In this document: positions 17,540-55,357 of the stretch, piece after piece
Numbering within the stretch: the first letter of the stretch is position 1
How the letters are laid out: the number at the start of each line of letters is the position of its first letter
DNA from: an uncultured Bacilli bacterium
GTDB lineage: Bacteria; Bacillota_I; Bacilli_A; RF39; UBA660
Assembly (NCBI GenBank): GCA_944372195.1
Contig: CALVYK010000003.1
Span: forward strand, 10,337-74,336
Direction: 5' to 3'
DNA: 64,000 nt
Program-made: the position numbers and the translations under genes
The notes under the pieces: model-generated
Databases searched by the model: none
Seen by the model: only the letters and a program-made list of their open reading frames with translations
What the model was told of the DNA's origin: nothing

Positions 17540-18997
17540 ATGGATAAAGAATTAAATAAAATAATTACCCATATTAAAGAAATGAATGGTAATAGTAGTG
17601 ATATTAATGTAAGATATTTTAATATTCATAAAGAAAAAGTAGCATTTATGTTTTTAGAAAGTGTCGCTAGCGATGATAAAATAAGTAATTATTTAGGCAA
17701 AAGTTTAAGTATTAATGTAAGAAGTAAAAAAAATATATTTGAAAATTTATTCGATAGTATTAATAATACTATTCCAAATAGTAAAGTTAAGATAATAGAT
17801 AACTATGACGATATTTTTTATCATTTAGCAAGCGGTTTTACTTGTGTTTTTGTCGATGGTTATAATAAAGCAATCACTTTAGAAACTAAAGCTTTATTAG
17901 ATAGAAGTGTTACTGAAGCTACTAGTGAACCTGTTTTAAAAGGTCCTAAAGATTGTTTTATTGAAAATATACTAGCTAATATGGGATTAATTAGGAAAAG
18001 AATTAAAGATCCCAATCTTTATTTTGAAGAAACAAAAGTTGGAAGAAGGACAAAAACAAAAGTTATAATTGGTTATATTAAAGATATTGCTGATGAAGAA
18101 AAAGTAAATTTATTAAAGAAAAAACTAGAAAAAATTAATATTGATGGAATCATCGATTCAAATTATATAAAAGAATTATTAACCGATAATCAAAAATCTT
18201 TTTTACCAAGAGTAATATCTACAGAAAGACCTGATTTAACCGCCATGGGATTATTAGACGGTAAAATAGCTATCATCGTAGAAAACACTCCTTATGTTTT
18301 ATTACTTCCTACCGTATTTGCTGATTTTTTCAAATCATCTGAAGACTATTATACAAAACCATTTAATGCCTCTTTTACAAGAATATTAAGATATATCGCT
18401 TTTTTTATTGCTATATTAGTTCCAGCTCTTTATATAGCTGTAACTACATTTAATATGGAAGTCGTCCCTAGTTCTTTATTAATATCATTTTCTATTCAAA
18501 GAGAAAGTGTTCCCTTTCCCACCATAATAGAAGTTCTAATACTAGTAATTTCTTACGAGATATTAAGAGAAGCCGATACAAGAAAACCACAAATCATGGG
18601 CGCATCCATCAGTATTGTCGGTGCTTTAATTTTAGGTGAAGCAGCTGTTTCTGCCGGCGTTATATCACCAATTGTTGTTATTGTTATTTCTATTTCAGCC
18701 GTTTCAGGAATGGGTTTCAATGATCCAGACATAACAAATGCAATTAGAATATGGCGAATTTTATTCATGTTGGCCGCTTGCTTGTTTGGTATTGTTGGAA
18801 TCGTCATTTTATTCATTATCTTTATAACTAAATTGAACAGTATTGAAGTATTAGGTACACCTTATTTAGCGCCTTTATCTCCTTTTAGTTTAAAAGATTT
18901 TAAAAATTCTTTGACAAGATTCCCTCAGCAAAAAATCAAGACAAGACCGACTTATTTTAATAAAAAAAATATTAATAGAATAGGAAGTGACAAATGA
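17540..18997 (+). CDS. Spore germination protein, GerA-family A subunit
   Basis: 485 aa with a soluble N-domain followed by 4-5 TM segments. First gene of a three-gene germinant-receptor operon. RBS aggtga. Confidence 0.85.
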   Translation: MDKELNKIITHIKEMNGNSSDINVRYFNIHKEKVAFMFLESVASDDKISNYLGKSLSINVRSKKNIFENLFDSINNTIPNSKVKIIDNYDDIFYHLASGFTCVFVDGYNKAITLETKALLDRSVTEATSEPVLKGPKDCFIENILANMGLIRKRIKDPNLYFEETKVGRRTKTKVIIGYIKDIADEEKVNLLKKKLEKINIDGIIDSNYIKELLTDNQKSFLPRVISTERPDLTAMGLLDGKIAIIVENTPYVLLLPTVFADFFKSSEDYYTKPFNASFTRILRYIAFFIAILVPALYIAVTTFNMEVVPSSLLISFSIQRESVPFPTIIEVLILVISYEILREADTRKPQIMGASISIVGALILGEAAVSAGVISPIVVIVISISAVSGMGFNDPDITNAIRIWRILFMLAACLFGIVGIVILFIIFITKLNSIEVLGTPYLAPLSPFSLKDFKNSLTRFPQQKIKTRPTYFNKKNINRIGSDK

Positions 18998-20154
18998 AAA
19001 AACTATTAATCATTCCATTAATATTCCTATTAACTGGGTGTTGGAATTATCGCGAACTTAATCAATTAGCTATAACGACTGGGATTGCAGTAGATAAAGA
19101 AAATGATAATTATAAAATAACTATTATGATAGCTAATTCTAAAAAAAGCAGTAGTTCAGATGATAGTATAACTCCATCAGCAGCTGTTTACGATGGAACA
19201 GGTCAAACAATTTATGAAGCCTTTAAAGATACATCTTTAAGTGTATCTAAACAAATTTATCTAAGTCATATTGATGTATTAGTATTATCTGAAGAAGTCG
19301 CAAAAAATAATTTAACTGATGTAATTGATTTTCTATTTCGTTATCCCCAAACAAGAAATAATTTTTATTTAGTTTTAGCAAAGGATAAAAAAGCTAGCGA
19401 CATCTTAAAAGTAACTACGCCATTAGAGACATTTCCCTCTCAAAATCTAGCTAAAAATCTTGAAATAACTGATAAATTACAAGGATTTACTTATACAGTC
19501 GATTTTACTGATTTTACAAAATCACTTGTATCAGAAGGGATAAATCCTATTCTTCCATCAGTAACAATCATTGGAAATAGTGAAGAAGGAAATAAAGAAG
19601 AAAACGTACAACAAAATGAACCATCTACTTATTTAAAATTAGACATATTAGGATTATTTAAAAAAGATAAATTTGTTGCTTGGGCCAATCCTAATCAAAG
19701 CAAAGGAATCAATATAATCAATAATAAAATATACATATTAGGAGTTATCATTGATTACCAAAATGAAAAAATAGTAACAGAAATAACCGAAATGAAAACT
19801 GATTTTAAAGTTGAAAATAATAAAGTGAAAATAACTATTGGTGCAACTGGAGCAATTCAAGAGGTAAATGCTAATGTTAATCTATATAATCTTAAAACTA
19901 TTGAAGAAATTCAAAATTCAGATGTTGAAAAAATTAAAGAATATGTTAATGATGCTATTAATTTAGCCAAAGATAATAAAACAGATATTTTTGGTTTTGG
20001 AAACTATGTTTATAAGAATAATCCTAAAAAATGGAATGAGATAAAAGATAAATGGGACGATGAAATATTCCCTAGTTTAGAAGTAGAAATAGAAGTCAAT
20101 CTAAAACTTCAGGCCAAAGGTTCAATAAATAATATCGTTGAGGTGAGAGAATGA
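18994..20154 (+). CDS. Ger(x)C-family germination lipoprotein
   Basis: Lipobox LLTGCW, then the GerxC-typical WNYRELNQLAITTGIAVD. ATGA overlap with the A subunit. Confidence 0.85.
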   Translation: MKKLLIIPLIFLLTGCWNYRELNQLAITTGIAVDKENDNYKITIMIANSKKSSSSDDSITPSAAVYDGTGQTIYEAFKDTSLSVSKQIYLSHIDVLVLSEEVAKNNLTDVIDFLFRYPQTRNNFYLVLAKDKKASDILKVTTPLETFPSQNLAKNLEITDKLQGFTYTVDFTDFTKSLVSEGINPILPSVTIIGNSEEGNKEENVQQNEPSTYLKLDILGLFKKDKFVAWANPNQSKGINIINNKIYILGVIIDYQNEKIVTEITEMKTDFKVENNKVKITIGATGAIQEVNANVNLYNLKTIEEIQNSDVEKIKEYVNDAINLAKDNKTDIFGFGNYVYKNNPKKWNEIKDKWDDEIFPSLEVEIEVNLKLQAKGSINNIVEVRE

Positions 20155-21224
20155 AAGTAACTAATTCAGAATATGCTTGTTTATCATCTTTTTTAATAAG
20201 ATCATTATTTTTTGGACCAGCTATTTATAGTATCTTACATTTTGCTTTACAAGATGGCTGGATAAGTATCATCGTTTCATTTATTTTAAGCTTTATTCCT
20301 TTAATTATTTATTATAAGCTACTAAATTGTAATCCTAATGATAATATTGTTAGCTTAAATAACAAATTAGGATTAATAGGAAAAATAATTAATACAATTC
20401 TAACAGCTTTTGTTATTTTTCACGCCAGTCTAATTCTATGGAATTTAACTAACTTCATATATTCACAATTTCTATTCCAAACACCATTAATTGTTATTGC
20501 TATTATTATTTCCTTTGGCATATTTTATATCAGTATTAAAAACCTAACAACTATCGCTAGAACGGGAACTGTTTTCTTTATTATTAGCACTATACTATAT
20601 TTTATAGCAGCTTTATCTTTAATTAGTAAATGCGATTTAAATGGTCTTAAACCCATTTTCAACTCAGGTATTATGTCAATTCTAAAGGGAAGTTTTTCTT
20701 CTTTAGGACTTAATATATTTCCTTTATTTATAATTTTAATAATACCGAAAAATAACATCAAAAATAATAACAAAATTATATCATCTTTCTTTAAAGTTTA
20801 TATTTTCAGATATTTGTGCATGCTATCAGTATTAGTAATTTGTGTAGCTATTTTGGGAATAGAATTAACTAACCTTTATCAATATCCGGAATATCACATT
20901 TTAAAAACTATTAATATTGCTAACTTTTTTCAAAGAGTCGAATCAGTTTTATCAGTTCAGTGGATATTTGATGCTGTCATGTCAATAGCATTATGCCTTT
21001 ATTATGTTAAAGAAAGTATAACCAAAACATTTAATTTAAAAAACAAATTTAATTTAATAAATATTATTTGCATTATTAGTATTTTAATTATCGCAAATTA
21101 TATCTTTACTAGTAATACGGTAGCAGAAACATTTTATAAAAATATTTATCCTTTTCTAACTTCAATCTTTTTCTTAATTATTCCTTTGATAATATTAATA
21201 ATAGTTAAAGTTAAGAAAACTTAA
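20151..21224 (+). CDS. Spore germination protein, GerAB-type permease subunit
   Basis: 357 aa with about 10 TM segments (APC-like). ATGA overlap with the C subunit. Confidence 0.8.
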   Translation: MKVTNSEYACLSSFLIRSLFFGPAIYSILHFALQDGWISIIVSFILSFIPLIIYYKLLNCNPNDNIVSLNNKLGLIGKIINTILTAFVIFHASLILWNLTNFIYSQFLFQTPLIVIAIIISFGIFYISIKNLTTIARTGTVFFIISTILYFIAALSLISKCDLNGLKPIFNSGIMSILKGSFSSLGLNIFPLFIILIIPKNNIKNNNKIISSFFKVYIFRYLCMLSVLVICVAILGIELTNLYQYPEYHILKTINIANFFQRVESVLSVQWIFDAVMSIALCLYYVKESITKTFNLKNKFNLINIICIISILIIANYIFTSNTVAETFYKNIYPFLTSIFFLIIPLIILIIVKVKKT

Positions 21225-25484: not shown

Positions 25485-25617
25485 ATTCTCACCTATAATT
25501 ATTATATATGATTTTTTTATAATTATCAATATGTTTATTTATAAAATATAGGTGTTTAATTCACACCCTTTTGTCATTATTGAATATGCTATATTAGAAA
25601 ATGAAAGGGTGGATTTT

Positions 25618-26064
25618 ATGTGTAATAATGAAAATGAATCTTGCAAATGCATAGCGGAAATATTAACTGTAATATGTATTCTACAACAAAACGCAAATTG
25701 TTCTGATTCATGTTTAGATACATGTGATCGTGGATTTTTAGGTTGTGGTACTACTACTTATACTTGCAATACAAGACCTATAATGTTATATACATGCTGT
25801 GGTAATGGGACACCATGGAGTATGCCAACAACTAAAGATACAACTGACTGTACTGACACTCCAACACCATCAAATTGTTCAAACGTATTTAGAATTGAAA
25901 AAATTGATGGATGTTGTGCAACTTTTAGAGTTCTAGCACCAAATACTGATCCTCTAACACAAGCAGCTATTCCATATGTATCAACTAATTCTTTCTTTAC
26001 TATGAATTTAAATTGTGTTTGTAGTTTAAGATGTTTACAAGATACATACGTTGAATGTTTATAA
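25618..26064 (+). CDS. CotY/CotZ-family spore coat/crust protein
   Basis: Start moved to the ATG at 25618 (RBS gaaagggtgg). Cys-rich, with VFRIEKIDGCCATFRVLAP and NLNCVCSLRCL aligning to the CotY blocks FFRVEKLCDCCATLSILRP and LGCFCAIQCL as I remember them. Confidence 0.75.
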   Translation: MCNNENESCKCIAEILTVICILQQNANCSDSCLDTCDRGFLGCGTTTYTCNTRPIMLYTCCGNGTPWSMPTTKDTTDCTDTPTPSNCSNVFRIEKIDGCCATFRVLAPNTDPLTQAAIPYVSTNSFFTMNLNCVCSLRCLQDTYVECL

Positions 26065-42796: not shown

Positions 42797-43405
42797 ATGA
42801 AAAAAATAATAATAAAGTATACGATGAATTTGATTAAAAAAAATGGAGATTATGATGAAGAGAAACTAGCAATTATTAAATATGGACTTGAAGGATTATA
42901 TTTAACAGTAACTAAGTTACTAGTCATATTTCTGTTAGCCTATATACTAAATATATTGAAAGAAGTAATTACATTTCTATTAATATATAATATCATTAGA
43001 ACTACATCATTTGGATTACATGCGACTAAAAGTTGGATATGTTTGCTATCATCAACATTAATATTTATAGGATTTCCAATTGTATGCAAATACATGTATC
43101 TTAATAATTACAATAAATTGATTCTTGGTCTTGTATTAATATTATTTATATATAAAAATTCACCAGCTGATACACATAAAAGACCAATTGTAAATCCTAA
43201 AAGAAGAATGTTTTTTAAATATAGTTCAACTTTCATTGCAATAATATTTGTATTTTGCTCAATCTTAATTAATAATAATTTTATAAGTAATTGTTTTATA
43301 TTTTCATTATTTGTTCAATCATTTATGATATCACCTTTAATATATAAAATATTCAATTTGCCTTATAATAATTATTTAACTTATTTAGCAAACAATAATA
43401 TTTAA
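42797..43405 (+). CDS. agrB: Accessory gene regulator B (AgrB-family AIP-processing membrane peptidase)
   Basis: 202 aa. It has IIKYGLEGLYLTVTKL and the catalytic-region-like RTTSFGLHA, with 5-6 TM segments, directly upstream of an AgrD-like ORF. Confidence 0.85.
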   Translation: MKKIIIKYTMNLIKKNGDYDEEKLAIIKYGLEGLYLTVTKLLVIFLLAYILNILKEVITFLLIYNIIRTTSFGLHATKSWICLLSSTLIFIGFPIVCKYMYLNNYNKLILGLVLILFIYKNSPADTHKRPIVNPKRRMFFKYSSTFIAIIFVFCSILINNNFISNCFIFSLFVQSFMISPLIYKIFNLPYNNYLTYLANNNI

Positions 43406-43453
43406 ATATACATTGTATATTTGAATATAAAGAATAAGAAGGAGGGAAGTAGT

Positions 43454-43573
43454 ATGGCTTTTGTAGCATCTTTATTAGCAACAGTTGGTTCATTCTTAGC
43501 AACAATGGGAAGTCAAGCTTGCATTCTTGTAGTAGCTGACGAACCTGATTGTCCAAAAAGTTTAATAAAATAA
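43454..43573 (+). CDS. agrD: AgrD-like autoinducing-peptide precursor (39 aa), absent from the ORF track
   Basis: RBS AGAAGGAGGGAAGTAGT ATG. The translation is MAFVASLLATVGSFLATMGSQACILVVADEPDCPKSLIK. That gives an amphipathic leader, a Cys followed by hydrophobic residues, then an acidic DEP..P..L tail. Confidence 0.8.
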   Translation: MAFVASLLATVGSFLATMGSQACILVVADEPDCPKSLIK

Positions 43574-43607
43574 AAATGTAGGTTAACAAATCTACATTTT
43601 TATTTTT
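43573..43607. terminator. Bidirectional terminator between agrD and the convergent kinase gene
   Basis: AAAATGTAG (43573-43581) / CTACATTTT (43592-43600) with a 10-nt loop, then TTTTTATTTTT. The kinase stop codon lies in the right arm. Confidence 0.65.
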
Positions 43608-44899
43608 ATAATTTGAGTAAAAATATTATTTACTATTTTCATATCATTAGTTATTTTTTCATTTTCATCAACAATTTTCTTAAGTAAACTTAACCCATAG
43701 CCATGACCTTTAGACTTACTAGTGTAACCTTTTTCATATATTTTATTTAAATCAAAATCATCTTTAATTCGATTAGAGACTTCAACAATAAATTCTTTAT
43801 CAATATACATTGAAATAATTATCTCTCGTTCTTTCTTATTAAATTTTACTGTTTCCTCGATTGCATTATCAACTATAATTCCTGCAATTCTACAAATATC
43901 ATAATTCATTTTAGATGATAGTTTCCCAAAATCAATCTTTCTTACTTGATTATCAATATCTAAAATTACTTCAATATTATTTTCTTGCATTAATAACATT
44001 TTTTGATATATTAATCCCTGCAAACCTCCAGAAGGAATCCGTTTAGCTTTATTGTAAATAATTTCATTATCTTCTCTCTTTTCTTTTATTATCTCATTTA
44101 CATATTCAATTAATTTTTTATCATTTTTTTCAATCATTGACCTTATTACTAACAATTGATTTTTATTTTCATGATTATTTACTCTTTGATAGTCAAGCAT
44201 CTTTTCATATTCATTTAAATTATCAATTAGTATTTTATTGTTCTCTAAATAAATTTTATTTTTGCTCTTTTCGCAAATATAACTAAATATAATAATAGAA
44301 TATATTATTATAAACGCAATATTAATTGCTATAAACTTTAAATTATTTTCATTTATGTAATTTGAAGTTAAAAAATAATTTAGAGTTATGACAAACATGA
44401 ACAAAATAAGATATATAATAAAATCATTCATTTTTTCAAGCAAACCTAAAAGTTTTTTTATTAAAATTTTTATATATTTAATCCTATAAACAAAAATAGC
44501 AATTATAGAAACAATTAAATTTACTATAATAGATCCAATAAATGTACTTTGAGAGAGCTGCAATAAATTAATAGACATATTGTAAAAAAATAACATGCAT
44601 ATTAATTCTGATATAAATAGCAATAATTGTTCTAAAAAAGATACTATAAAGCATTCGTAAAACTTACTTTTAAAAATAAACATCGAATATATACTTAATA
44701 AAATTGTTGTTGTAAAAAATCTTAAAAAACTGTCAACGATAGAATAATTAAGAACGCATAGTATAATTAATGAAAAAAATAAAGCAAGATTCAAAAAACT
44801 TAAATTTATTTTTTTATCTAAAATTTTTGATTGTAAGTAAATAGCAGTTATTAGCATAATAATAGTTGGTAAAAAATACATTCTTATAGCATCTAACAT
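43592..44899 (-). CDS. agrC: AgrC-like sensor histidine kinase (polytopic sensor plus GHKL ATPase)
   Basis: 435 aa with 6-7 TM segments. The C-terminal ATPase has NAIEE and SKGHGYGLSLLKKIV. It overlaps the LytTR regulator gene by 7 nt. Confidence 0.8.
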   Translation of the reverse strand: MLDAIRMYFLPTIIMLITAIYLQSKILDKKINLSFLNLALFFSLIILCVLNYSIVDSFLRFFTTTILLSIYSMFIFKSKFYECFIVSFLEQLLLFISELICMLFFYNMSINLLQLSQSTFIGSIIVNLIVSIIAIFVYRIKYIKILIKKLLGLLEKMNDFIIYLILFMFVITLNYFLTSNYINENNLKFIAINIAFIIIYSIIIFSYICEKSKNKIYLENNKILIDNLNEYEKMLDYQRVNNHENKNQLLVIRSMIEKNDKKLIEYVNEIIKEKREDNEIIYNKAKRIPSGGLQGLIYQKMLLMQENNIEVILDIDNQVRKIDFGKLSSKMNYDICRIAGIIVDNAIEETVKFNKKEREIIISMYIDKEFIVEVSNRIKDDFDLNKIYEKGYTSKSKGHGYGLSLLKKIVDENEKITNDMKIVNNIFTQIIKIKM

Positions 44900-45603
44900 A
44901 ATTGACCAACTTCTTTTTTATAATTATCTGAAACTAAGTCTATAATTTCTCCATTATCGAATAGAATATGTTTTTTCTTTTTATCTACTTTAACTATTCT
45001 TTCTTCATTAACTAAGCATGCTCTATGACTTTGCGCTAGAGCACCCATACTTAACTCTTTAATTTCAGTTAGAGATTTTCCAACCTTATAAGTTCTATTG
45101 TCTGTTTTAATTAAACATTTTCTCTCTACATTATCATGAGTAACGTACAAAATATCTTTAATTGGAATTATATAAACTGCATTATTATCAACAAACCTTA
45201 TAGCAATTTTCTTGCCAATATATGATAATGATTTAACTATTGCATCTTTAACTCTTTTTTCAAAATCATCAAACTTACAAATGAATGTTAAAACCATAAG
45301 TTGGTCACGTACAATATTTGAAGCTAATTCTTCATGTGCTGTAATAAATATTATAATGCTATCTAAATCATTTTTTCTAATCATTCTTGCAATATCTATA
45401 CCAGATTCTGATTTAGTCTCAATATCTAATAAATATATTCTATTTACCATTGGCTTATTCATAAGTTTTTTAAACTCAATATCATAATCATTAAAGACAA
45501 ATGTTTTGTATTCTAATTTATTATTAATCATAACTTTGTCTATTATATTTTTAATATTATCGGTTACCTCTTTAAAATCGTCAACTATAACAAAATTAAT
45601 CAT
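44893..45603 (-). CDS. agrA: LytTR-family response regulator (AgrA-like)
   Basis: 236 aa. The receiver domain contains IYLLDIE. The C-terminal LytTR domain contains I.IKDILYV......K.LIKT and L.QSHRACLVN. GGAGG RBS. Confidence 0.85.
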   Translation of the reverse strand: MINFVIVDDFKEVTDNIKNIIDKVMINNKLEYKTFVFNDYDIEFKKLMNKPMVNRIYLLDIETKSESGIDIARMIRKNDLDSIIIFITAHEELASNIVRDQLMVLTFICKFDDFEKRVKDAIVKSLSYIGKKIAIRFVDNNAVYIIPIKDILYVTHDNVERKCLIKTDNRTYKVGKSLTEIKELSMGALAQSHRACLVNEERIVKVDKKKKHILFDNGEIIDLVSDNYKKEVGQLC

Positions 45604-48008: not shown

Positions 48009-48350
48009 TTATGATATATCTTTATCAATTAAACCAGCTTCTTTTAATATGTTATATATGCAGGAATAACTTCTTCTATTATAAAATTTACAAAATTTTC
48101 TTACACTAACATTACTTCTTTTATATAAGCTTATTATATAGTCTTTCTCTTTTTGACTTAATTTGTTAACTGGTTCTTTATCTTTGTTGCCATGTATAAA
48201 ATTAATTTCACCATCTAATATTTCTTTTTTTAATTTTAAGATATATTTTGGATGATAACCAGTAATATTAGCAATTTCAACATATGAAAGATATGATTTG
48301 TTTCTTAATTTATCGGCAATTAACTTAGCAGCTTCTATTTTTTTATCCAT
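48009..48350 (-). CDS. Small helix-turn-helix protein resembling the N-terminal DNA-binding part of IS-family transposases
   Basis: Start moved to the ATG at 48350 (AGGTGATATT ATG). SYVEIANITGYHPKYILKLKKE and HGNKDKEPVNKLSQKEKDYIISLYKRSNVSVRKFCKFY recall the HTH head of ISNCY/IS1202-like transposases. No catalytic domain follows. Confidence 0.5.
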   Translation of the reverse strand: MDKKIEAAKLIADKLRNKSYLSYVEIANITGYHPKYILKLKKEILDGEINFIHGNKDKEPVNKLSQKEKDYIISLYKRSNVSVRKFCKFYNRRSYSCIYNILKEAGLIDKDIS

Positions 48351-48833
48351 AATATCACCTATAATAATATTACTACAAAAGTAATATTTTAGCAAGATAA
48401 TATTGTCATAAAAATAATATTTTTGTTATCTTGTAGATTATTATATTGATTAAATTGGTATAAATAATTTTTTATATAAGTCACACTATGGAGTATATTT
48501 ATATAGCTTTACTTTTAATTTTTAACTATAAATAACAAAATATTGAACATCCATTTATTATCTAACTTTATTAATTTAAATCTATGTGACTCTTTATTAT
48601 TTAATATAAGAATATTAAAAATATTTGGCATAAATCATTCATAAATATGTTATATTTTTTTATTATAGATATTTGTGCTATATTTGGATATTTTCAAATT
48701 ACTTTTCGCCAATTATTCTTTTTGTATAAAATAATTATTCTAATAAGATATAAATTTTTTTCTTATATTTTTTTACCATATATAAATCATATATAGTTTT
48801 TTTTACTATTGGTAAAATTGATTTTAAATCTAT

Positions 48834-48859
48834 AAAAAAATCACACCTGTTTGGTGTGA
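48834..48859 (-). terminator. Intrinsic terminator of the pilin-like gene
   Basis: On the minus strand: TCACACC aaaca GGTGTGA followed by T7. Confidence 0.75.
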
Positions 48860-48926
48860 CTAAATTTTAATTTAACATTTAACATCAAAATAAATATTTT
48901 GGAATATCTTAAAAATATATAGATAT

Positions 48927-51821
48927 TTAACCAATTCTAAATGCAGGTGATACTCCATAACTGGAATTAGCATAATAACAATGCCAAGTACCAGTATAGT
49001 AAACACTGTAAAAATAATCCGTACTAAGGTAATCAACCGTTCTTAACCACCATGTTTGAGCTTTACCTTGATACATTTTTATAGTTTTTGAGAATTCGGA
49101 TGTTGTAACTCCAGAGTTCTTATAATAATCTAATTGTCTAGTACTATTATATGCACTATCATATCCTCCAGCATTTGCACCCCATACTTCCATAGGTGAA
49201 AGTAAATATAATTTATCTACAGTAGTAAAATTGCCACTTTCATAATATTGACCATACCCTGAAACAACAGTAGTATTTATTATAATATTTTTTAAATCAG
49301 TAGGCAAAGAATTATATATTGTACTATTTAAAAAGTTTCTCAAATCAGAATCTCGCCATCCACCTTTATTTGTTGGAGTAGCCTTCATTACATGAGTTGT
49401 AATTATATCAACGAATTCAATTACAAAACCACATGCAGATTGAGATTCATAATTTGTACAATTTGTTGTTTTATTTGCCAACCTAACTGTAAAATTTCCG
49501 TAACCAGATAAATTTATTGTTTTAGTATCCCCAACGTCATACTCAGAAACTGTTCCATTTTTTATGTTACTAGAAATTGTACTCCATGAATCATAGTCAA
49601 ATGGTGTTTTAACAATAATCTGCGTAGAAGCTGCTGAAGTATTGCCAGCCCCACTTTTCATAGTACAAGTTAATGTATAAGTACCCGCAGATAAGGAATT
49701 TAAATTTGTAATAACATTATTATTAATTTTACATGTTGTTGTTCCATTACTTAAATTAGAATTATAGTTTGTTAAAATAGTAAAGTAATTAATTGCATTT
49801 ACAGATGTTCCTCTTCTTATTATACTACTTGAGCTTTTAGCACTTAATTTAGGTTCAGTCTTGTCAATCTTTATTGTATAACTTCTAGTTGAACTATTTC
49901 CCGCTAAATCCGTTGTTGTTATTGTTACTTTTGTTCCACTTGTATTTGATGTTATACTGCTAACATTACTTGTTGTACTTGAATGTCCTGATAAACTATC
50001 GCTTCCATTTACTTTATTTACTGTTACATTGCTTGTATACCAACTATTACTTCCTAATGTTCCTGTAAATGTCGCTGTTCCGGCTGTTGGTGCTGTCTTA
50101 TCTAGTTTATATGTATCACTACAAAGCTTTGATGTTTTATTATTATTATCGGTTACTTCGATACATAACCTATTATTTCCTTCTACTTCTATATAGAAGT
50201 CTTTGGTTGCCCCTGTAAAGCTTGCTACTGGCGTACATTCGCTTGAACTATTACTTGAACAACTTTTCGCAGTCTTAATTCCACTTCCACTATTATCTGT
50301 GATTGTTGCTCTTACAAAGAAATTACTCTTTGCCCAGCCATTACTATTTACAGAACTACTATCTACTAATTTATATGTAATTGTTGGTGCGGCTGCATCG
50401 ACAATAATGTTTCTTGTAACTTCTCTTGTATTTCCTGCTTTATCTGTTACTTTATATTTTACTGTCTTTGTTCCTGTTACTGATGTACTTATACTTGAAG
50501 GTTCTATTATCAAATCTCCTGATATGCCTGATAATGCATCACTATATGTTACTCCTGCTTTCAAGTCTACTGTTGTATTTCTTTGTACTGTCTTATCAGC
50601 TACTCCAGCTATATTTGGTAATGTCTTATCTAGTTTATAGGTATCACTACATACTTTTGATGTCTTATTATTATTATCTGTTACTTCGATACATATTCTA
50701 TTATTTCCTTCAGTTTGAATAGAGAATTCTTTTGTTGTTCCGGTAAAACTTGCGCTTGGTGTACATTCATTGGAACTATTAGTTGAACAGTTTTTAGCTA
50801 TCTTAATTCCAGTTCCACTATTATCTGTGATTGTAGCTCTTACAAAGAAATTACTCTTTGCCCAACCATTACTATTTACAGAACTGCTATCTACTAAATT
50901 GTATGTTATTGTTGGCGCGGCTGCATCGACAATAATATTTCTTGTTGCTTCTTTTGTATTTCCTGCTTTATCTGTTATTTTATATTTTACTACTTTTGTT
51001 CCAGTTACTGATGTATCTACAATTGTTGGCTCGATTATTAATTCGCCTGATATTCCTGATAATGCATCGTTATATGTTACTCCTGTTATTAAATCTACAT
51101 TCGTATTCCTTTGAACTGTTTTATCCCCTATTCCTTCTATATTTGGCGCTGTCTTATCTAAATTTAATTCCTCTGTACATACTACTTTACTTTCGCCATA
51201 TGCATTTTCTGCTTTGGCACACAATACATTTGTTCCTTCATTTATTATTATTTTTGTTCCATTTGTTTTATTTTCTTCTATGTTTGGCTCACATTCTGTA
51301 TTTCCTATACAATAATAATATTTTGTCCCTGTTCCATTTATATTTACCATTATATTTTTGTTTAGCCAGCTATTTTCATTTATATTTTCTTTATCATACA
51401 CTAGTGTCATCGTTGGTGCGATTTCTGTTCTTACACATGGTTCTGCATATTTAAAATAATATTGCTTAGCTGTCTCATTCCATCTATATAACACACATCC
51501 TTCCAATTCATTATTTGTTACTGGATTGATATGTTCTTTATCACTTATAAAACCTTTGTTAGCCAATTCTTTTAGTTCTAATATTTGTTGTTCTTTTGGA
51601 TAACCCAAATCATATTTAACGCTATAAAAATAAGCTGCTTCCTCAATATTTTCGATTGTTCTTTCTAAAGCACTCTCTCTACTTCTTTGGATTGATTTAT
51701 CTACTATTGGATATGTTATTAAAGCTATTACGGCTAGTATTATTATTACTCCTAATAATTCTATTAGTGTAAATCCTTTTTGTTCATGTATTTTTTTTAA
51801 TTTATTGGTGTTTTTCTTCAT
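48927..51821 (-). CDS. Giant modular protein with a prepilin-type N-terminal cleavage/methylation signal, tandem Ig-like modules and a DUF6273-like C-terminal domain
   Basis: The N-terminus is MKKNTNKLKKIHEQKG/FTLIELLGVIIILAVIALITYPIV (G-1, F+1, E+5). Two 176-aa repeats follow. The C-terminus WWLRTVDY...YGVSPAFRIG is typical of DUF6273-type domains (from memory). Confidence 0.8.
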   Translation of the reverse strand: MKKNTNKLKKIHEQKGFTLIELLGVIIILAVIALITYPIVDKSIQRSRESALERTIENIEEAAYFYSVKYDLGYPKEQQILELKELANKGFISDKEHINPVTNNELEGCVLYRWNETAKQYYFKYAEPCVRTEIAPTMTLVYDKENINENSWLNKNIMVNINGTGTKYYYCIGNTECEPNIEENKTNGTKIIINEGTNVLCAKAENAYGESKVVCTEELNLDKTAPNIEGIGDKTVQRNTNVDLITGVTYNDALSGISGELIIEPTIVDTSVTGTKVVKYKITDKAGNTKEATRNIIVDAAAPTITYNLVDSSSVNSNGWAKSNFFVRATITDNSGTGIKIAKNCSTNSSNECTPSASFTGTTKEFSIQTEGNNRICIEVTDNNNKTSKVCSDTYKLDKTLPNIAGVADKTVQRNTTVDLKAGVTYSDALSGISGDLIIEPSSISTSVTGTKTVKYKVTDKAGNTREVTRNIIVDAAAPTITYKLVDSSSVNSNGWAKSNFFVRATITDNSGSGIKTAKSCSSNSSSECTPVASFTGATKDFYIEVEGNNRLCIEVTDNNNKTSKLCSDTYKLDKTAPTAGTATFTGTLGSNSWYTSNVTVNKVNGSDSLSGHSSTTSNVSSITSNTSGTKVTITTTDLAGNSSTRSYTIKIDKTEPKLSAKSSSSIIRRGTSVNAINYFTILTNYNSNLSNGTTTCKINNNVITNLNSLSAGTYTLTCTMKSGAGNTSAASTQIIVKTPFDYDSWSTISSNIKNGTVSEYDVGDTKTINLSGYGNFTVRLANKTTNCTNYESQSACGFVIEFVDIITTHVMKATPTNKGGWRDSDLRNFLNSTIYNSLPTDLKNIIINTTVVSGYGQYYESGNFTTVDKLYLLSPMEVWGANAGGYDSAYNSTRQLDYYKNSGVTTSEFSKTIKMYQGKAQTWWLRTVDYLSTDYFYSVYYTGTWHCYYANSSYGVSPAFRIG
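50106..51161 (-). repeat. In-frame tandem duplication, 2 x 528 bp (176 aa each), inside the pilin-like gene
   Basis: Copy 1 is 50634-51161 (aa 221-396) and copy 2 is 50106-50633 (aa 397-572). Both start LDKT.PNI.G..DKTVQRNT.VDL. They contain an identical block apart from one residue: RNIIVDAAAPTITY.LVDSSSVNSNGWAKSNFFVRATITDNSG. Confidence 0.9.
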
Positions 51822-52121
51822 ATTTTCTCCTTAACCATTTAATTAAGCGTCTTATATTTCTACTTATTTTTTATATCATTATACATCATTTTTTATCATA
51901 TTTCAATAGCAACACTATGATTAATGCATATAGTTGCTTTGAAGTTAAAATTAATCATGTTATAAAATTGATTTTTATTAATTTTTTTCAAACCATTAAT
52001 AATCATAAATTTTTGTTTGATAATATATCAAATATTATTAAATTAGTTTGAATTTTACTATACACCTCAATTATATATCTATAATATAATTTGCTTAATT
52101 TACATATATAATAATATTAAA

Positions 52122-52148: not shown

Positions 52149-52424
52149 TTAATTATTGTTATTAGAATTAAATTCATCTTCAGGTGACAAACCAACATAC
52201 TTGAAAATTAATTTAGCTAAATTATAATCATTAACTTTTTTTACACTTTTTTGGCCGTTAATATCAACCTCTTCAAAAATTACCAATTCTTCCATAACGT
52301 TTTCTTCATCATCGGTCAATCTTAAAGAAACATAATAAGTGTCTCCCTTATATATAGCCTGCTTTATAATCACATATTTTTTGCCGTCAGCTAATTCCAT
52401 AACTTGATTAATTCTATTTGTCAT
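52149..52424 (-). CDS. Small acidic protein, DUF1292-like
   Basis: 91 aa. LADGKKYVII...YYVSLRLTDDEENVMEELVIFEEV loosely fits the DUF1292 pattern. GGAGG RBS. Confidence 0.45.
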   Translation of the reverse strand: MTNRINQVMELADGKKYVIIKQAIYKGDTYYVSLRLTDDEENVMEELVIFEEVDINGQKSVKKVNDYNLAKLIFKYVGLSPEDEFNSNNNN

Positions 52425-52438
52425 TTTTAATTAACCTC

Positions 52439-55357
52439 CTATTTTGTCTTTCCTGATATTTCATCTGTTGGTTGTGACTCAGATTGCAATTGAGCAAAAA
52501 AGTCATTTAAATCTTGAACAGATTCTTGTGAATACTGACTTCCCAACTCTTCTTGATGTTCTTGAGCTATATCTTCAGCAACATCTTTTACGGTAGTATC
52601 TCCTTGAGTTGTATTATTTTCATATTTGTTTACTACAGCACCATCTTCATTGATTGTAGAAGATACTATATTTTCATCTTCAGTAACGTCGCCAGTGCTT
52701 ATTCCAGATTGCTCTAAACGATCTACAATTTCTTGAGCAGCTTGTTCTTGCAAAGTGCCTGTGTCACCAGTGTTATTGGTTATAGTTGCAGTGTCATCAT
52801 CTGTTTTTAAAATGCCAACTTCTCCTTGTTCAACTGTTTGTGTTTCTTGTACTGGAGTTGGTTCTGGTGTTGGAACTGGAGTTGGCTCTGGTGTTGGCTC
52901 TGGTGTTGGAACTGGAGTTGGCTCTGGTGTTGGAACTGGAGTTGGCTCTGGTGTTGGAACTGGAGTTGGTTCTGGTGTTGGAACTGGAGTTGGTTCTGGT
53001 GTTGGAACTGGAGTTGGTTCTGGTGTTGGAACTGGAGTTGGTTCTGGTGTTGGAACTGGAGTTGGCTCTGGTGTTGGAACTAGAGTTGGTTCTGATAACT
53101 CACTATCATCTTTATTTTTATTTGAATCATCTGTTAAATTTTCCTCATCAAAATTATTATCAACAAAATCATAATCTAAATCTTCATCAGAAACATCTGG
53201 TCCTTCATCGCTTACTGATGGAATATCTTCCGTTGGCAAATCTTTTTCTTTCATTGCATTACATGCAGCAAGAGTAACAAGACAAGCAGTCACTAAAGTG
53301 GCTAAACTAATCAAACCCTTTTTATGTTTTTTCAAAAAGTCTAAAACATTTTTCTTTGCTTTTTTCCAAACAACAATTGGAACTGGTTGATTGTCGTTTT
53401 TATCTTCTTCTTTTGTTGTATCTGAAGTTGATTTTGTATCTTTATTTTCTTTTTCTTTTCCATCAACTGGAACTGGAATTGGTACTACACCAACTTTATC
53501 TTTTTCTTCATCTTGTTTTTCATCAGAAGTTGATTCTGCATCTTTATTTTCTTTTTCTTTCCCATCAACTGGAACTGGAATTGGTACTACACCAACTTTA
53601 TCTTTTTCTTCATCTTTTTTTGCATCAGAAGTTGATTCTGTATCTTTATTTTCTTTTTCTTTTCCATCAACTGGAACTGGAATTGGTACTACATCTACTT
53701 TATCTTTTTCTTCATCTTTTTTTGCATCAGAAGTTGATTCTGTATCTTTATTTTCTTTTTCTTTTCCATCAACTGGAACTGGAATTGTTACTACATCTAC
53801 TTTTTCTCTTTCTGATAAATTATGTATCATATTGTCTAGTTTATCTTCGTAATCATAAGAAATCGCTTTCTCACGTGTCTTTAATATTGTAAGTTGTGAT
53901 AGTAAATTATTTAATTGTTGCCTATCCATTTCCATAGCATATTTATCAATATTTTTCTTATCTAACAATTCTTTTTTCTTTGCATCAAGTTTTTTTTCAT
54001 CAGCAGCCATAAGATTTTCAAAATTCTTTTTACTTTTCTTGACAAGTGTAGTAGCAAATTCAACAGATAAAATTGTTTTATTTATTCTTTCAATTTGCTT
54101 GTCAATATTATCTATTTCTTTAAGAAGTCTACGTTTCTCTTTAGTAATAATTTCCTTTTGTTGATTATATATATCTGTTGGAAGTATAGCTTCATTAGTT
54201 CTCAAGGTATCTAGTTGAGATAATAATCCTTTTTTGTTTTCTTCTAACTTAGATATATCATTTTCCAAAGATATTTTTTGATTTTCAGTAGATATTAATG
54301 ATGCCTCATAGTTCTTAATTTCAGCATCATATCGAGAAATATTATCCTGTAATGTTGATATTTCACTATTGATAGCTTCAACTGCAAATATAGATGGTAC
54401 ATAATTATTTTCATCAGATAACTTATCTTCTAATGATATTTTTTGCATCAAAATATCTGCTTGCAATCTTTGATTTTCAGCAATTTCTTTGTCCATATTA
54501 TCATACTTATTAGTCAATAATGATGGTAACATAAATTTAAATGATTTTAATTGTTTTAATATCTCATCATCGCTAATTTGATCATTTTCGATTTGACTTA
54601 TTAAAGATTCTAGTTCAATAGGAAAGTCAAATGCTATATATTTTTCTCTATTATTGTAAGATTGTACAACATTTTTTAATTGTACTAATTTTTTTTCATC
54701 AGCATTTTTTTTGGCAATATCAATAGAATTATTAACATCGTCTTGATCCTTTTGTTTTATATGATCCAAGAATTTTTCATATTTTCCTTTTTGACCTTTT
54801 AATAATTTTTTTCTATATTCCAAATTATCTAAACTTGCCATTAATTCATTTTTTTCTTGTGTATAGTTATCCAACTCTACTTTGACAATATCAATATCTT
54901 CACGTAGACTTTCCATTTTCATTCTAGCAGCTTTTTCTTCTTCAGGATCTGGATTTTCACCTAAATTTCTAAACTGTACACCAGCCTGATCAAGTTCCTT
55001 TTGAGCTTCACTTGATAATTCATTACAAGCTTCTATTTCACTATTTACAATACCAAGTCTACTCTTGATTGCAAGAATTTCTGCATCTGTCTTAACAGTA
55101 TCCTCACTATTCTTTCTCAATGTTTCTTCGTAATCATAAATTTTAGAATGATTTTTAATATAATCAAACTTTCTATAATTGTCATCATCAGATAATTTTA
55201 CTTCTAAATCCCTAATTTTCATATTTAAAACTGCAAGTTGATTTTCAATTTCTTTTTGTTCTTTCTCTTTACTTTCAGCTGCTAAAGAAGTTGATTTATC
55301 ATTTTCTAACATTTCAGCCATTTCTTTTAATGCTGCTAACAATTCCTCTTTATTCAT
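52439..55357 (-). CDS. 972-aa bitopic protein: long cytoplasmic coiled coil, 4 x 34-aa repeats, one TM helix, extracellular acidic and (TPEPTPVP)n linker plus a small C-terminal domain
   Basis: The first ~520 aa are heptad-rich in K/E/L/N. The TM is [22 protein letters not shown], preceded by [16 protein letters not shown] (N-in). The repeats are listed separately. RBS agggtg. Confidence 0.75.
52851..53093 (-). repeat. About 10 tandem copies of a 24-bp unit encoding TPEPTPVP
   Basis: The plus strand reads ACTGGAGTTGG(T/C)TCTGGTGTTGGA repeated, with one 12-bp half-unit insertion. It is locally much more GC-rich than its surroundings. Confidence 0.9.
53393..53800 (-). repeat. Four tandem copies of a 102-bp unit encoding V(D/G)VV(T/P)[29 protein letters not shown]
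   Basis: Unit ends fall at 53800, 53698, 53596 and 53494, exactly 102 bp apart. The first two copies are nearly identical and the fourth is the most diverged. Confidence 0.9.

Follow-up and report, generated by a model that had tools for sequence, protein, structure and literature searches.

How does a bacterium come to encode a giant protein with a prepilin signal far from any genes for a pilus machine, and what might that protein do? The question is raised by a 64,000-nucleotide (nt) stretch of DNA, hereafter the window, from an uncultured Bacilli bacterium (GTDB lineage Bacillota_I; Bacilli_A; RF39; UBA660; GenBank assembly GCA_944372195.1, contig CALVYK010000003.1, positions 10,337 to 74,336 of the forward strand), with a base composition of 25% GC. 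The gene lies at 48927-51821 on the minus strand of the window and encodes, from an ATG start, 964 amino acids (aa) followed by a stop codon; its product has an exact database match, P0001. A preliminary description of the locus left two options, an adhesin displayed on a pilus or pseudopilus, or one for which the pilin signal is only a means of export and anchoring, and the evidence favors the first. We assign a probability of about 0.6 to the reading that a type IV filament displays the protein as a minor pilin, one of several interchangeable tip adhesins. This option is favored because the head is homologous to pilins of ∼120 aa, because Glu5 and Pro22 are invariant, because the cargo is of the binding type, and because a paralog lies beside an assembly ATPase.

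The N-terminus carries the class III signal peptide of a type IV pilin or type 4 filament subunit. It reads MKKNTNKLKKIHEQKG/FTLIELLGVIIILAVIALITYPIV, with cleavage predicted at the slash, and the junction MKKNTNKLKKIHEQKG/FTLIELL has Gly-1, Phe+1, and Glu+5 all in place. The preliminary description had already called this signal canonical, and two profile matches agree, both above their cut-offs: Pfam N_methyl at aa 14-37 (28.2 bits versus a cut-off of 21.2) and NCBIfam TIGR02532 (26.2 bits versus 16.3). The leader peptide thus delimited comprises aa 1-16 (51774..51821, minus strand), with a predicted cut after Gly16. F17, T18, E21, and P38, which would be F1, T2, E5, and P22 of the mature protein, are invariant in 55 of 55 relatives, and a six-frame regular-expression search found no second class III motif in the 64 kb.

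The gene is also transcriptionally on its own, as first proposed from its terminator and a spacer of about 300 bp. A sigma-70-like promoter, TTGAAA-17-TATAAT (51878..51906, minus strand; 11 of 12 consensus matches), lies ∼57 nt 5' of the ATG, and a ribosome-binding site, AAGGAG, can be read at 51827..51832 (minus strand), 5 nt before it. About 66 nt past the stop codon, an intrinsic terminator with the hairpin AGTCACACC-AAACA-GGTGTGATT and a T-run occupies 48829..48861 on the minus strand (hairpin 48861-48839), and on the 5' side there is a terminator-like hairpin at 52146-52122. The spacers measure 327 bp upstream and 531 bp downstream. Within the leader, an A8 homopolymer (51793-51800) lies in codons 8-10, where slippage would turn the gene off; such tracts are frequent by chance at 25% GC, and the tract is of equal length in the two alleles available.

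Behind the leader lies what appears to be a complete pilin module (aa 17-131; 51429..51773, minus strand), delimited by an AlphaFold2 (AF2) model, invariant residues, stand-alone homologs, and alpha1 matches. It consists of a hydrophobic alpha1N with Glu5 and Pro22, an alpha1 that extends to aa 69, and a small beta head in which C109 and C129 are conserved. For aa 1-225, the AF2 model (mean predicted local distance difference test, pLDDT, 85.9) shows a 51-residue helix at 19-69, strands at 79-82, 109-115, and 120-126, and, after this small sheet, a separate beta-sandwich at 138-221. The alpha1 sequence, and this part only, matches solved pilins (Geobacter PilA-N, E = 1e-5; Streptococcus sanguinis PilE1, E = 5e-3). 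When aa 40-135, without alpha1N, served as the query of an exhaustive HMMER search, only 177 representatives were retrieved among 1.84 billion proteins, the match always being N-terminal, in proteins of ∼100 to 2,201 aa. Among the 150 head matches listed, 44 stand alone as pilins 100-160 aa long and terminate at the second conserved Cys (e.g., P0385, 121 aa); stand-alone pilins with lengths of 116-131 aa can be aligned with aa 1-131 and stop at C129, and the same ending, GC...Y-x-Y...C, recurs in ∼30 short pilins encoded in related loci of metagenome-assembled genomes (MAGs). Because stand-alone pilins stop at C129 and aa 135-220 are modeled as a separate immunoglobulin (Ig)-like sandwich starting at 135, we place the pilin module's end at about aa 131; the earlier placement at about aa 220 was wrong.

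From there seven Ig-like modules form a stalk (aa 135-737) that leads to the C-terminal domain; at ∼4 nm per module, the stalk would be roughly 25-30 nm long. The first Ig-like beta-sandwich (aa 135-220; 51162..51419, minus strand) is defined by AF2 strands at 138-221 with a pLDDT of ∼90 and by Ig/FN3-type Foldseek matches, and contains an N-x-N-x-W motif and two conserved Cys pairs. Two tandem double modules follow, at aa 221-396 (50634..51161, minus strand) and aa 397-572 (50106..50633, minus strand), each composed of a Bact_surface_Ig-like domain and an NSNGW-type module. Their description as 176-aa Ig-like repeats has held up, the two copies being 82% identical in amino acids and 84% in nucleotides. 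The stalk ends with a Ser/Thr/Asn-rich beta module C (aa 573-651; 49869..50105, minus strand), the last segment common to the paralogs described below, and a beta module D (aa 652-737; 49611..49868, minus strand), the first paralog-specific segment, with weak Big_13 and DUF4625 matches. A recurring DKT-x-P motif marks the module boundaries at aa 222, 398, 574, and 653. In all, Pfam recognizes Bact_surface_Ig-like three times, Big_13, and DUF6273. By the definition of Raynaud et al. (2021), which asks for an N-terminal module with the IPR012902/N_methyl motif joined to at least one non-pilus domain, the protein is by its sequence a modular pilin.

The C-terminal end is a portable tip cassette (aa 738-964; 48930..49610, minus strand), built of an N-terminal subdomain and a DUF6273 domain that ends WWLRT...GVSPAFRIG. 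The DUF6273-like character noted earlier is clear, since PF19789 scores 74.3 bits at aa 815-963 against a cut-off of 23.5. The protein was also considered as a sortase-anchored adhesin, and its C-terminus, ...YGVSPAFRIG, has neither an LPXTG motif nor a hydrophobic tail. With its last 227 residues as the query, 1,377 homologs were found, at ∼50% identity over the full length, and the cassette occurs on unlike N-termini: on short class III pilin heads, after an ordinary signal or transmembrane segment plus a beta-sandwich in an abundant family of ∼393 aa, and on a transmembrane anchor followed by a '...QGAIDEL' motif. In the ∼393-aa family (within P0133-P0250), the cassette is ∼52% identical and the N-terminus reads MKKKSMLI..IGFAAISTTLIINGNAKV, which is no pilin and resembles another kind of export or anchor signal. 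Two further homologs, P0131 and P0132, carry two DUF6273 cassettes in tandem. The most variable part among the cassette homologs is the stretch between WWLR and VSPAFRI.

The AF2 model of the cassette is of high confidence (pLDDT 95.3; predicted TM-score, pTM, 0.92). In a Foldseek search of the PDB, its sole significant match is the Thomasclavelia ramosa IgA peptidase ThomasA (9qa6; E = 2e-6, TMq 0.60), the matched region being the N-terminal DUF6273 domain of that protein. Matches to classical C-type lectins are weak (E > 1). Among predicted viral structures there are 29 matches with E ≤ 1e-3 and TM-scores of up to 0.78, all of them gut-phage DUF6273, tail-fiber, or receptor-binding proteins. 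We know of no ligand for any DUF6273 domain. The domain has been described as C-type-lectin-like (PMC10743442), and it is on that description, rather than on direct lectin matches, that our label 'lectin-like' for the tip rests.

Comparison with its close relatives shows that the gene is no singleton but belongs to a set of at least three paralogs. The closest proteins, P0002/P0122 (1509 aa), P0003/P0127 (1294 aa), and P0004 (945 aa), are 91-94% identical in the N-terminal region and differ in their ends. In a second sample, ERZ28614392, scaffold_374 bears the window's own allele, with flanks 99.7-99.9% identical to the window, while P0122 lies on scaffold_401 and P0127 on scaffold_734 of the same sample. 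P0122 and P0127 are paralogs and not positional orthologs, because their loci differ in context (MutS/Lon versus LeuRS/RelA). The three members have in common the pilin module and the proximal stalk and differ in repeat number, distal module, and tip: the 176-aa double module is present in 2, 3, or 4 copies, and DNA homology stops at about nt 1961, i.e., at aa 654, a DKT-x-P boundary.

Over nt 101-800, the ERZ28614392 allele is 100% identical to both paralogs, so that a 700-nt tract is identical in three paralogs of one strain (L001 10101-10800, L092 8101-8800, and L093 8101-8800; the window counterpart is 51022-51721). The window and this allele differ at 24 positions in nt 177-495, and 24 of these 24 differences match the paralogs. 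This pattern in the sequence points to recent gene conversion among paralogous pilin genes. Since the converted tract is common to the ERZ28614392 allele and both paralogs, we infer that at least three paralogs (964, 1294, and 1509 aa) reside in one genome; the tetranucleotide correlation of the paralog loci with the window, 0.995, is just under that of the window's own alleles.

The wider family counts 368 relatives at E ≤ 1e-5 when the full protein is the query, nearly all of which begin with G/F or A/F-TLIELL. Their coverage of the 964-aa protein is high over aa 1 to ∼740 and then falls to only 16-29 of ∼126 matches across the tip; the C-termini are therefore swapped. The alternative ends comprise, among others, DUF6273 variants, PT-HINT/Hint domains, and a glycine-rich domain; proteins that share the pilin head are up to 2,201 aa long. 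In P0016, P0018, P0060, P0068, P0069, and P0072, PT-HINT, Hint_2, or intein-splicing domains replace the lectin-like tip; these Hint-type relatives stop ∼10-25 residues past '...HN', i.e., they end in a self-cleaving-type module with no recognizable toxin after it. When the GTDB species representatives were scanned, the family turned up in uncultured gut MAGs labeled Bacilli, Tenericutes, or Mycoplasmatota, with hosts including Clostridium sp. CAG:524 and Candidatus Fimihabitans. The best match there is 59% identical, which means that the species of the window is not one of those representatives. In ∼75 related MAG loci, class III genes of 114-970 aa are scattered among housekeeping genes, often 2-3 per locus. 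When 95 class III proteins encoded in such loci were scanned with Pfam, the models recognized N_methyl in 92 and, as cargo, DUF6273 in 17, Ig/HYR in 10, BspA-type leucine-rich repeats (LRR_5) in 2, and CBM5/12, DUF285, and a glycine-rich domain in one each; all of the identifiable cargo is of the binding type, and none is an enzyme.

Where, then, is the machine? The window bears none, as had been stated at the outset: a Pfam scan of all its sizeable open reading frames (ORFs) found no T2SSE, T2SSF, or Peptidase_A24 domain, and phmmer with PilB, PilT, PilC, PilD, PilM, and Tad proteins from control loci returned no match. What Pfam does find is GerA/GerAC/GerB, CotZ, PolC, ScpAB, an LtaS-like sulfatase, FeoAB, an Agr-type module, rubrerythrin, and similar content. 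The ∼9 kb and ∼5 kb past the window ends on its own contig, which bring the total to ∼78 kb, hold housekeeping genes only and no machinery. One paralog, however, is linked to such a gene. On scaffold_401 of ERZ28614392 (locus L092), the gene for the 1509-aa paralog comes right behind two minor-pilin-like genes and beside an ATPase gene of the PilB/GspE type, which is divergent from the pilin genes (ATPase plus minor-pilin-like genes, L092 5269-7935). The minor-pilin-like products have 163 aa (KKG/FILAE) and 173 aa (KKG/FTTVE). The ATPase, of 469 aa, scores 488 bits for GspE, 479 for PilB, and 268 for ComGA (cut-off 300), matches Paenibacillus PilB with E = 1e-120, and has a Walker A motif GATGTGKST, a CxxC...CxxC motif, and a low-complexity C-terminal tail. 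No PilC or PilD is encoded within 8 kb of this ATPase, and the type IV machine appears to be split across the genome. The preliminary description had made its reading depend on a prepilin peptidase or an assembly ATPase being encoded somewhere in the genome; the ATPase has been located, beside a paralog, whereas the loci searched hold no peptidase.

Other candidates for the machine fell away. A Tad-type operon (Flp, TadE, TadE, TadZ, CpaF, TadB, TadC, adjoining murC) occurs, highly conserved, in related gut Bacilli MAGs (L050, L089-L091), but it could not be linked to the genome of the window, and the machine beside the paralog is PilB-type. Its TadB has an N-terminal extracellular Bact_surface_Ig-like domain, and its CpaF, with the Walker A motif GGTGSGKTT in L050, is ≥73% identical across the 120 clusters listed. 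In L050 and L089, lectin-tipped GFTLIELL-type pilins are encoded within the Tad operon or immediately behind it, accompanied by a short pilin with the head type of the 964-aa protein. The 964-aa protein is itself no Flp/Tad pilin, its signal being of the GFTLIELL type; the true Flp of the related MAGs' Tad operon has 65 aa and the signature RG/QALVEY. A putative pilus operon in another locus, L023, with ORFs of 576 and 358 aa before a short pilin-like gene, turned out to encode DnaG and SigA.

On these grounds we propose that the mature protein would enter the membrane through alpha1N after a prepilin peptidase has cut at Gly16, presumably with methylation of the new N-terminus, and that a PilB-type filament machine encoded elsewhere would pick it up. 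The giant pilin would then be a low-abundance minor pilin, probably at a tip, either of a pilus or of a short pseudopilus, with its stalk holding the tip cassette out to a surface ligand such as a glycan. As tips, the paralogs would be interchangeable and would differ in specificity and reach.

Several observations weigh against this proposal. The 964-aa gene and nearly all of its relatives are orphans among housekeeping genes, and neither an A24 prepilin peptidase nor a T2SSF platform protein was found in the window, the contig ends, or L092 and L093. The assignment of L092 and the window to one genome comes from sample, gene-conversion tract, and composition, not from a closed genome. A stalk of seven modules could cross the cell wall alone, so that a filament would not be strictly needed. 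A Foldseek search of the PDB with the N-terminal model retrieved no pilin, its matches being dominated by Ig/FN3-type domains, a result that we counted as uninformative. The uppermost pilin of the tip has no Glu5 in some systems; here Glu5 is invariant, which leaves room for more than one exact position of the giant pilin in a filament. Finally, ThomasA can cleave IgA without its DUF6273 domain, to which no function has been assigned (PMC12402451).

Part of this evidence would also suit an adhesin that borrows the class III signal for export and anchoring and never polymerizes, its stalk crossing the wall much as that of a sortase-anchored adhesin does. The orphan monocistron with no machinery within ∼78 kb, the ∼75 related MAG loci in which scattered class III genes have no adjacent ATPase or peptidase, and a stalk probably long enough unaided all fit such a protein, and the occurrence of the same tip cassette on ordinary signal or transmembrane anchors indicates that the cassette works without a filament. 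Yet Glu5 and Pro22, which in pilins are associated with the assembly of filaments, are invariant in the family, and the head appears to be a complete pilin module, as in the stand-alone pilins of ∼120 aa. In addition, a paralog built on the same pilin module is encoded behind two minor-pilin genes, next to a PilB-type ATPase, and in another lineage lectin-tipped class III genes lie in or beside a Tad-type operon. We regard anchoring alone as the main rival explanation, though a rather unlikely one. Filament assembly could also serve something other than adhesion, if the protein were an accessory subunit of a Com-type DNA-uptake or secretion pseudopilus with its cargo capturing DNA or another substrate. 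Com systems are frequent in Bacillota, the ATPase of L092 scores for GspE and, below the cut-off, for ComGA, and the N-terminus has weak GspG and ComGC matches. These matches involve alpha1 only, though, and stay far below the equivalog cut-offs (ComGC 27.9 versus 75, GspG 28.5 versus 88.85, ComGD 17.3 versus 70, ComGE 16.4 versus 49), so that membership in none of these families is indicated; the cargo is lectin-like and Ig-like, in common with phage receptor-binding proteins, and no DNA-binding or enzyme domain was found in it. We consider such a role improbable.

The tip raises one further alternative, namely that the gene is a target of a diversity-generating retroelement (DGR), a phage-derived receptor-binding gene, or a prophage remnant. 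In Faecalibacterium phages, DGRs recurrently target DUF6273, whose C-terminal end holds the variable region (PMC10743442, PMC11792537); the WWLR-VSPAFRI stretch is the most variable one here as well, and the tip matches phage structures. Nevertheless, the 64 kb contain no template-repeat-like copy of the last 300 nt, the scanned ORFs of the window include no reverse transcriptase, and the 37 differences of the other-sample allele all fall in nt 177-1860, leaving the 3' 1,000 nt identical in the two alleles. Moreover, the flanks are housekeeping genes, syntenic in the second sample, with only a weak helix-turn-helix (HTH) fragment downstream, which speaks against a prophage or a mobile island as the source of the gene. 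A DGR or phage origin is thus very improbable.

If the protein is indeed a filament-displayed minor pilin, one may speculate further, with little confidence, that these uncultured gut Bacilli with small genomes keep a repertoire of swappable giant pilus tips, with lectin-like cassettes drawn from the pool of gut-phage receptor-binding proteins. Conversion would keep the handle uniform, cassette exchange and repeat expansion would vary the end, and the outcome would be a phage-like, strain-specific attachment to particular partner bacteria or host glycans. If true, this would be a chromosomal analog of tail-fiber swapping, mounted on a type IV filament.

The surroundings of the gene merit a brief description. 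Directly upstream, at 52439-55357 (minus strand), a 972-aa repetitive protein without a Pfam match is encoded, with a coiled-coil N-terminal half, four repeats of ∼33 aa, one transmembrane segment, and a long (PTPEPTPV)n tract; a 91-aa ORF at 52149-52424 (minus strand) accompanies it. In L001, from the second sample, this protein is not one ORF, and blastn register shifts in the repeats probably reflect a variable or misassembled copy number. On the other side, an unusually long AT-rich spacer of 531 bp (48396-48926) separates the pilin gene from a 128-aa ORF (48009-48395, minus strand) with a weak HTH_28 match (E = 0.007), which looks like an N-terminal transposase or regulator fragment. The pilin gene is flanked by FeoAB genes, and 3 kb downstream of these lies an Agr-type module (42797-45603) composed of AgrB (42797-43405, plus strand), a GHKL histidine kinase (43592-44899, minus strand), and a LytTR regulator (44893-45603, minus strand). 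The three-gene operon at 17540-21224, a candidate for PilB, PilT, and PilC, encodes GerA, GerAC, and GerB; because this operon is present together with a CotZ-like spore-coat gene (25552-26064), the organism is a spore-former, described here as an anaerobe, whose relatives have been deposited as 'Tenericutes/Mycoplasmatota' MAGs.

Modular pilins are thought to explain many of the functions of simple type IV filaments, and the few that have been studied are all small. The present family offers a handle on how uncultured gut bacteria of the Bacilli/Mycoplasmatota type might attach to hosts or partner bacteria. It also supplies many natural variants of DUF6273, a domain common in gut phages and present in an IgA protease, for the search for its ligand. 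Raynaud et al. listed more than 1,200 modular pilins in 264 architectures, with an extreme case of 860 aa (PMC8179133), and modular minor pilins at the pilus tip are an accepted model, exemplified by S. sanguinis PilB and PilC (PMC8179133, PMC9934059). Like these two proteins, which bear a vWA and a lectin module, respectively, the 964-aa protein combines a class III signal, a small pilin module, and a grafted binding module in a monoderm; PilB and PilC are adhesins with a predicted tip location, and the lectin-type cargo described here parallels that of PilC. The 964-aa protein is about twice their size and is known from sequence alone. It has a seven-module Ig-like stalk where PilB has a short loop, a DUF6273 tip in place of a concanavalin-like or vWA module, and an orphan monocistron with several paralogs of differing tips in place of genes in a pil locus.

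A precedent for interchangeable tips from dispersed loci is the Kil (Tad) pilus of Myxococcus xanthus (PMC12075869), which likewise has alternative tip sets that expose variable domains at its end; a single machine presumably serves them, and promiscuous peptidases process them. The Kil tips, however, are complexes of three to four TadE/F/G-like pilins in a diderm predator, whereas here each variant is one giant pilin of the GFTLIELL type, encoded by a gut monoderm; the linked machine is PilB-type rather than CpaF-type, and interchangeability is in our case deduced. Gut-phage DUF6273 proteins and ThomasA belong to the same Pfam family, resemble the tip in predicted fold (TM 0.6-0.78), and are, like it, surface proteins with the domain distal on an Ig-like stalk. 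In the present protein the domain sits on a pilin and not on a phage tail or a sortase-anchored protease, with no DGR nearby and no variation in the tip between two alleles. Finally, adhesins of the MSCRAMM type (microbial surface components recognizing adhesive matrix molecules), anchored through LPXTG, also use a variable number of tandem Ig-like repeats to project a distal binding domain through the wall. There the topology is reversed, since the 964-aa protein is anchored by its N-terminal pilin helix, lacks a C-terminal LPXTG motif, and has its binding domain at the C-terminus. Modular pilins were already known to be widespread, and the family extends this known class rather than representing a system of another kind. 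Its novelty is one of degree and combination: the size, a long Ig-like stalk of variable repeat number, a phage-type DUF6273 tip, and at least three paralogs with a converted handle, in an almost unstudied group of gut bacteria.

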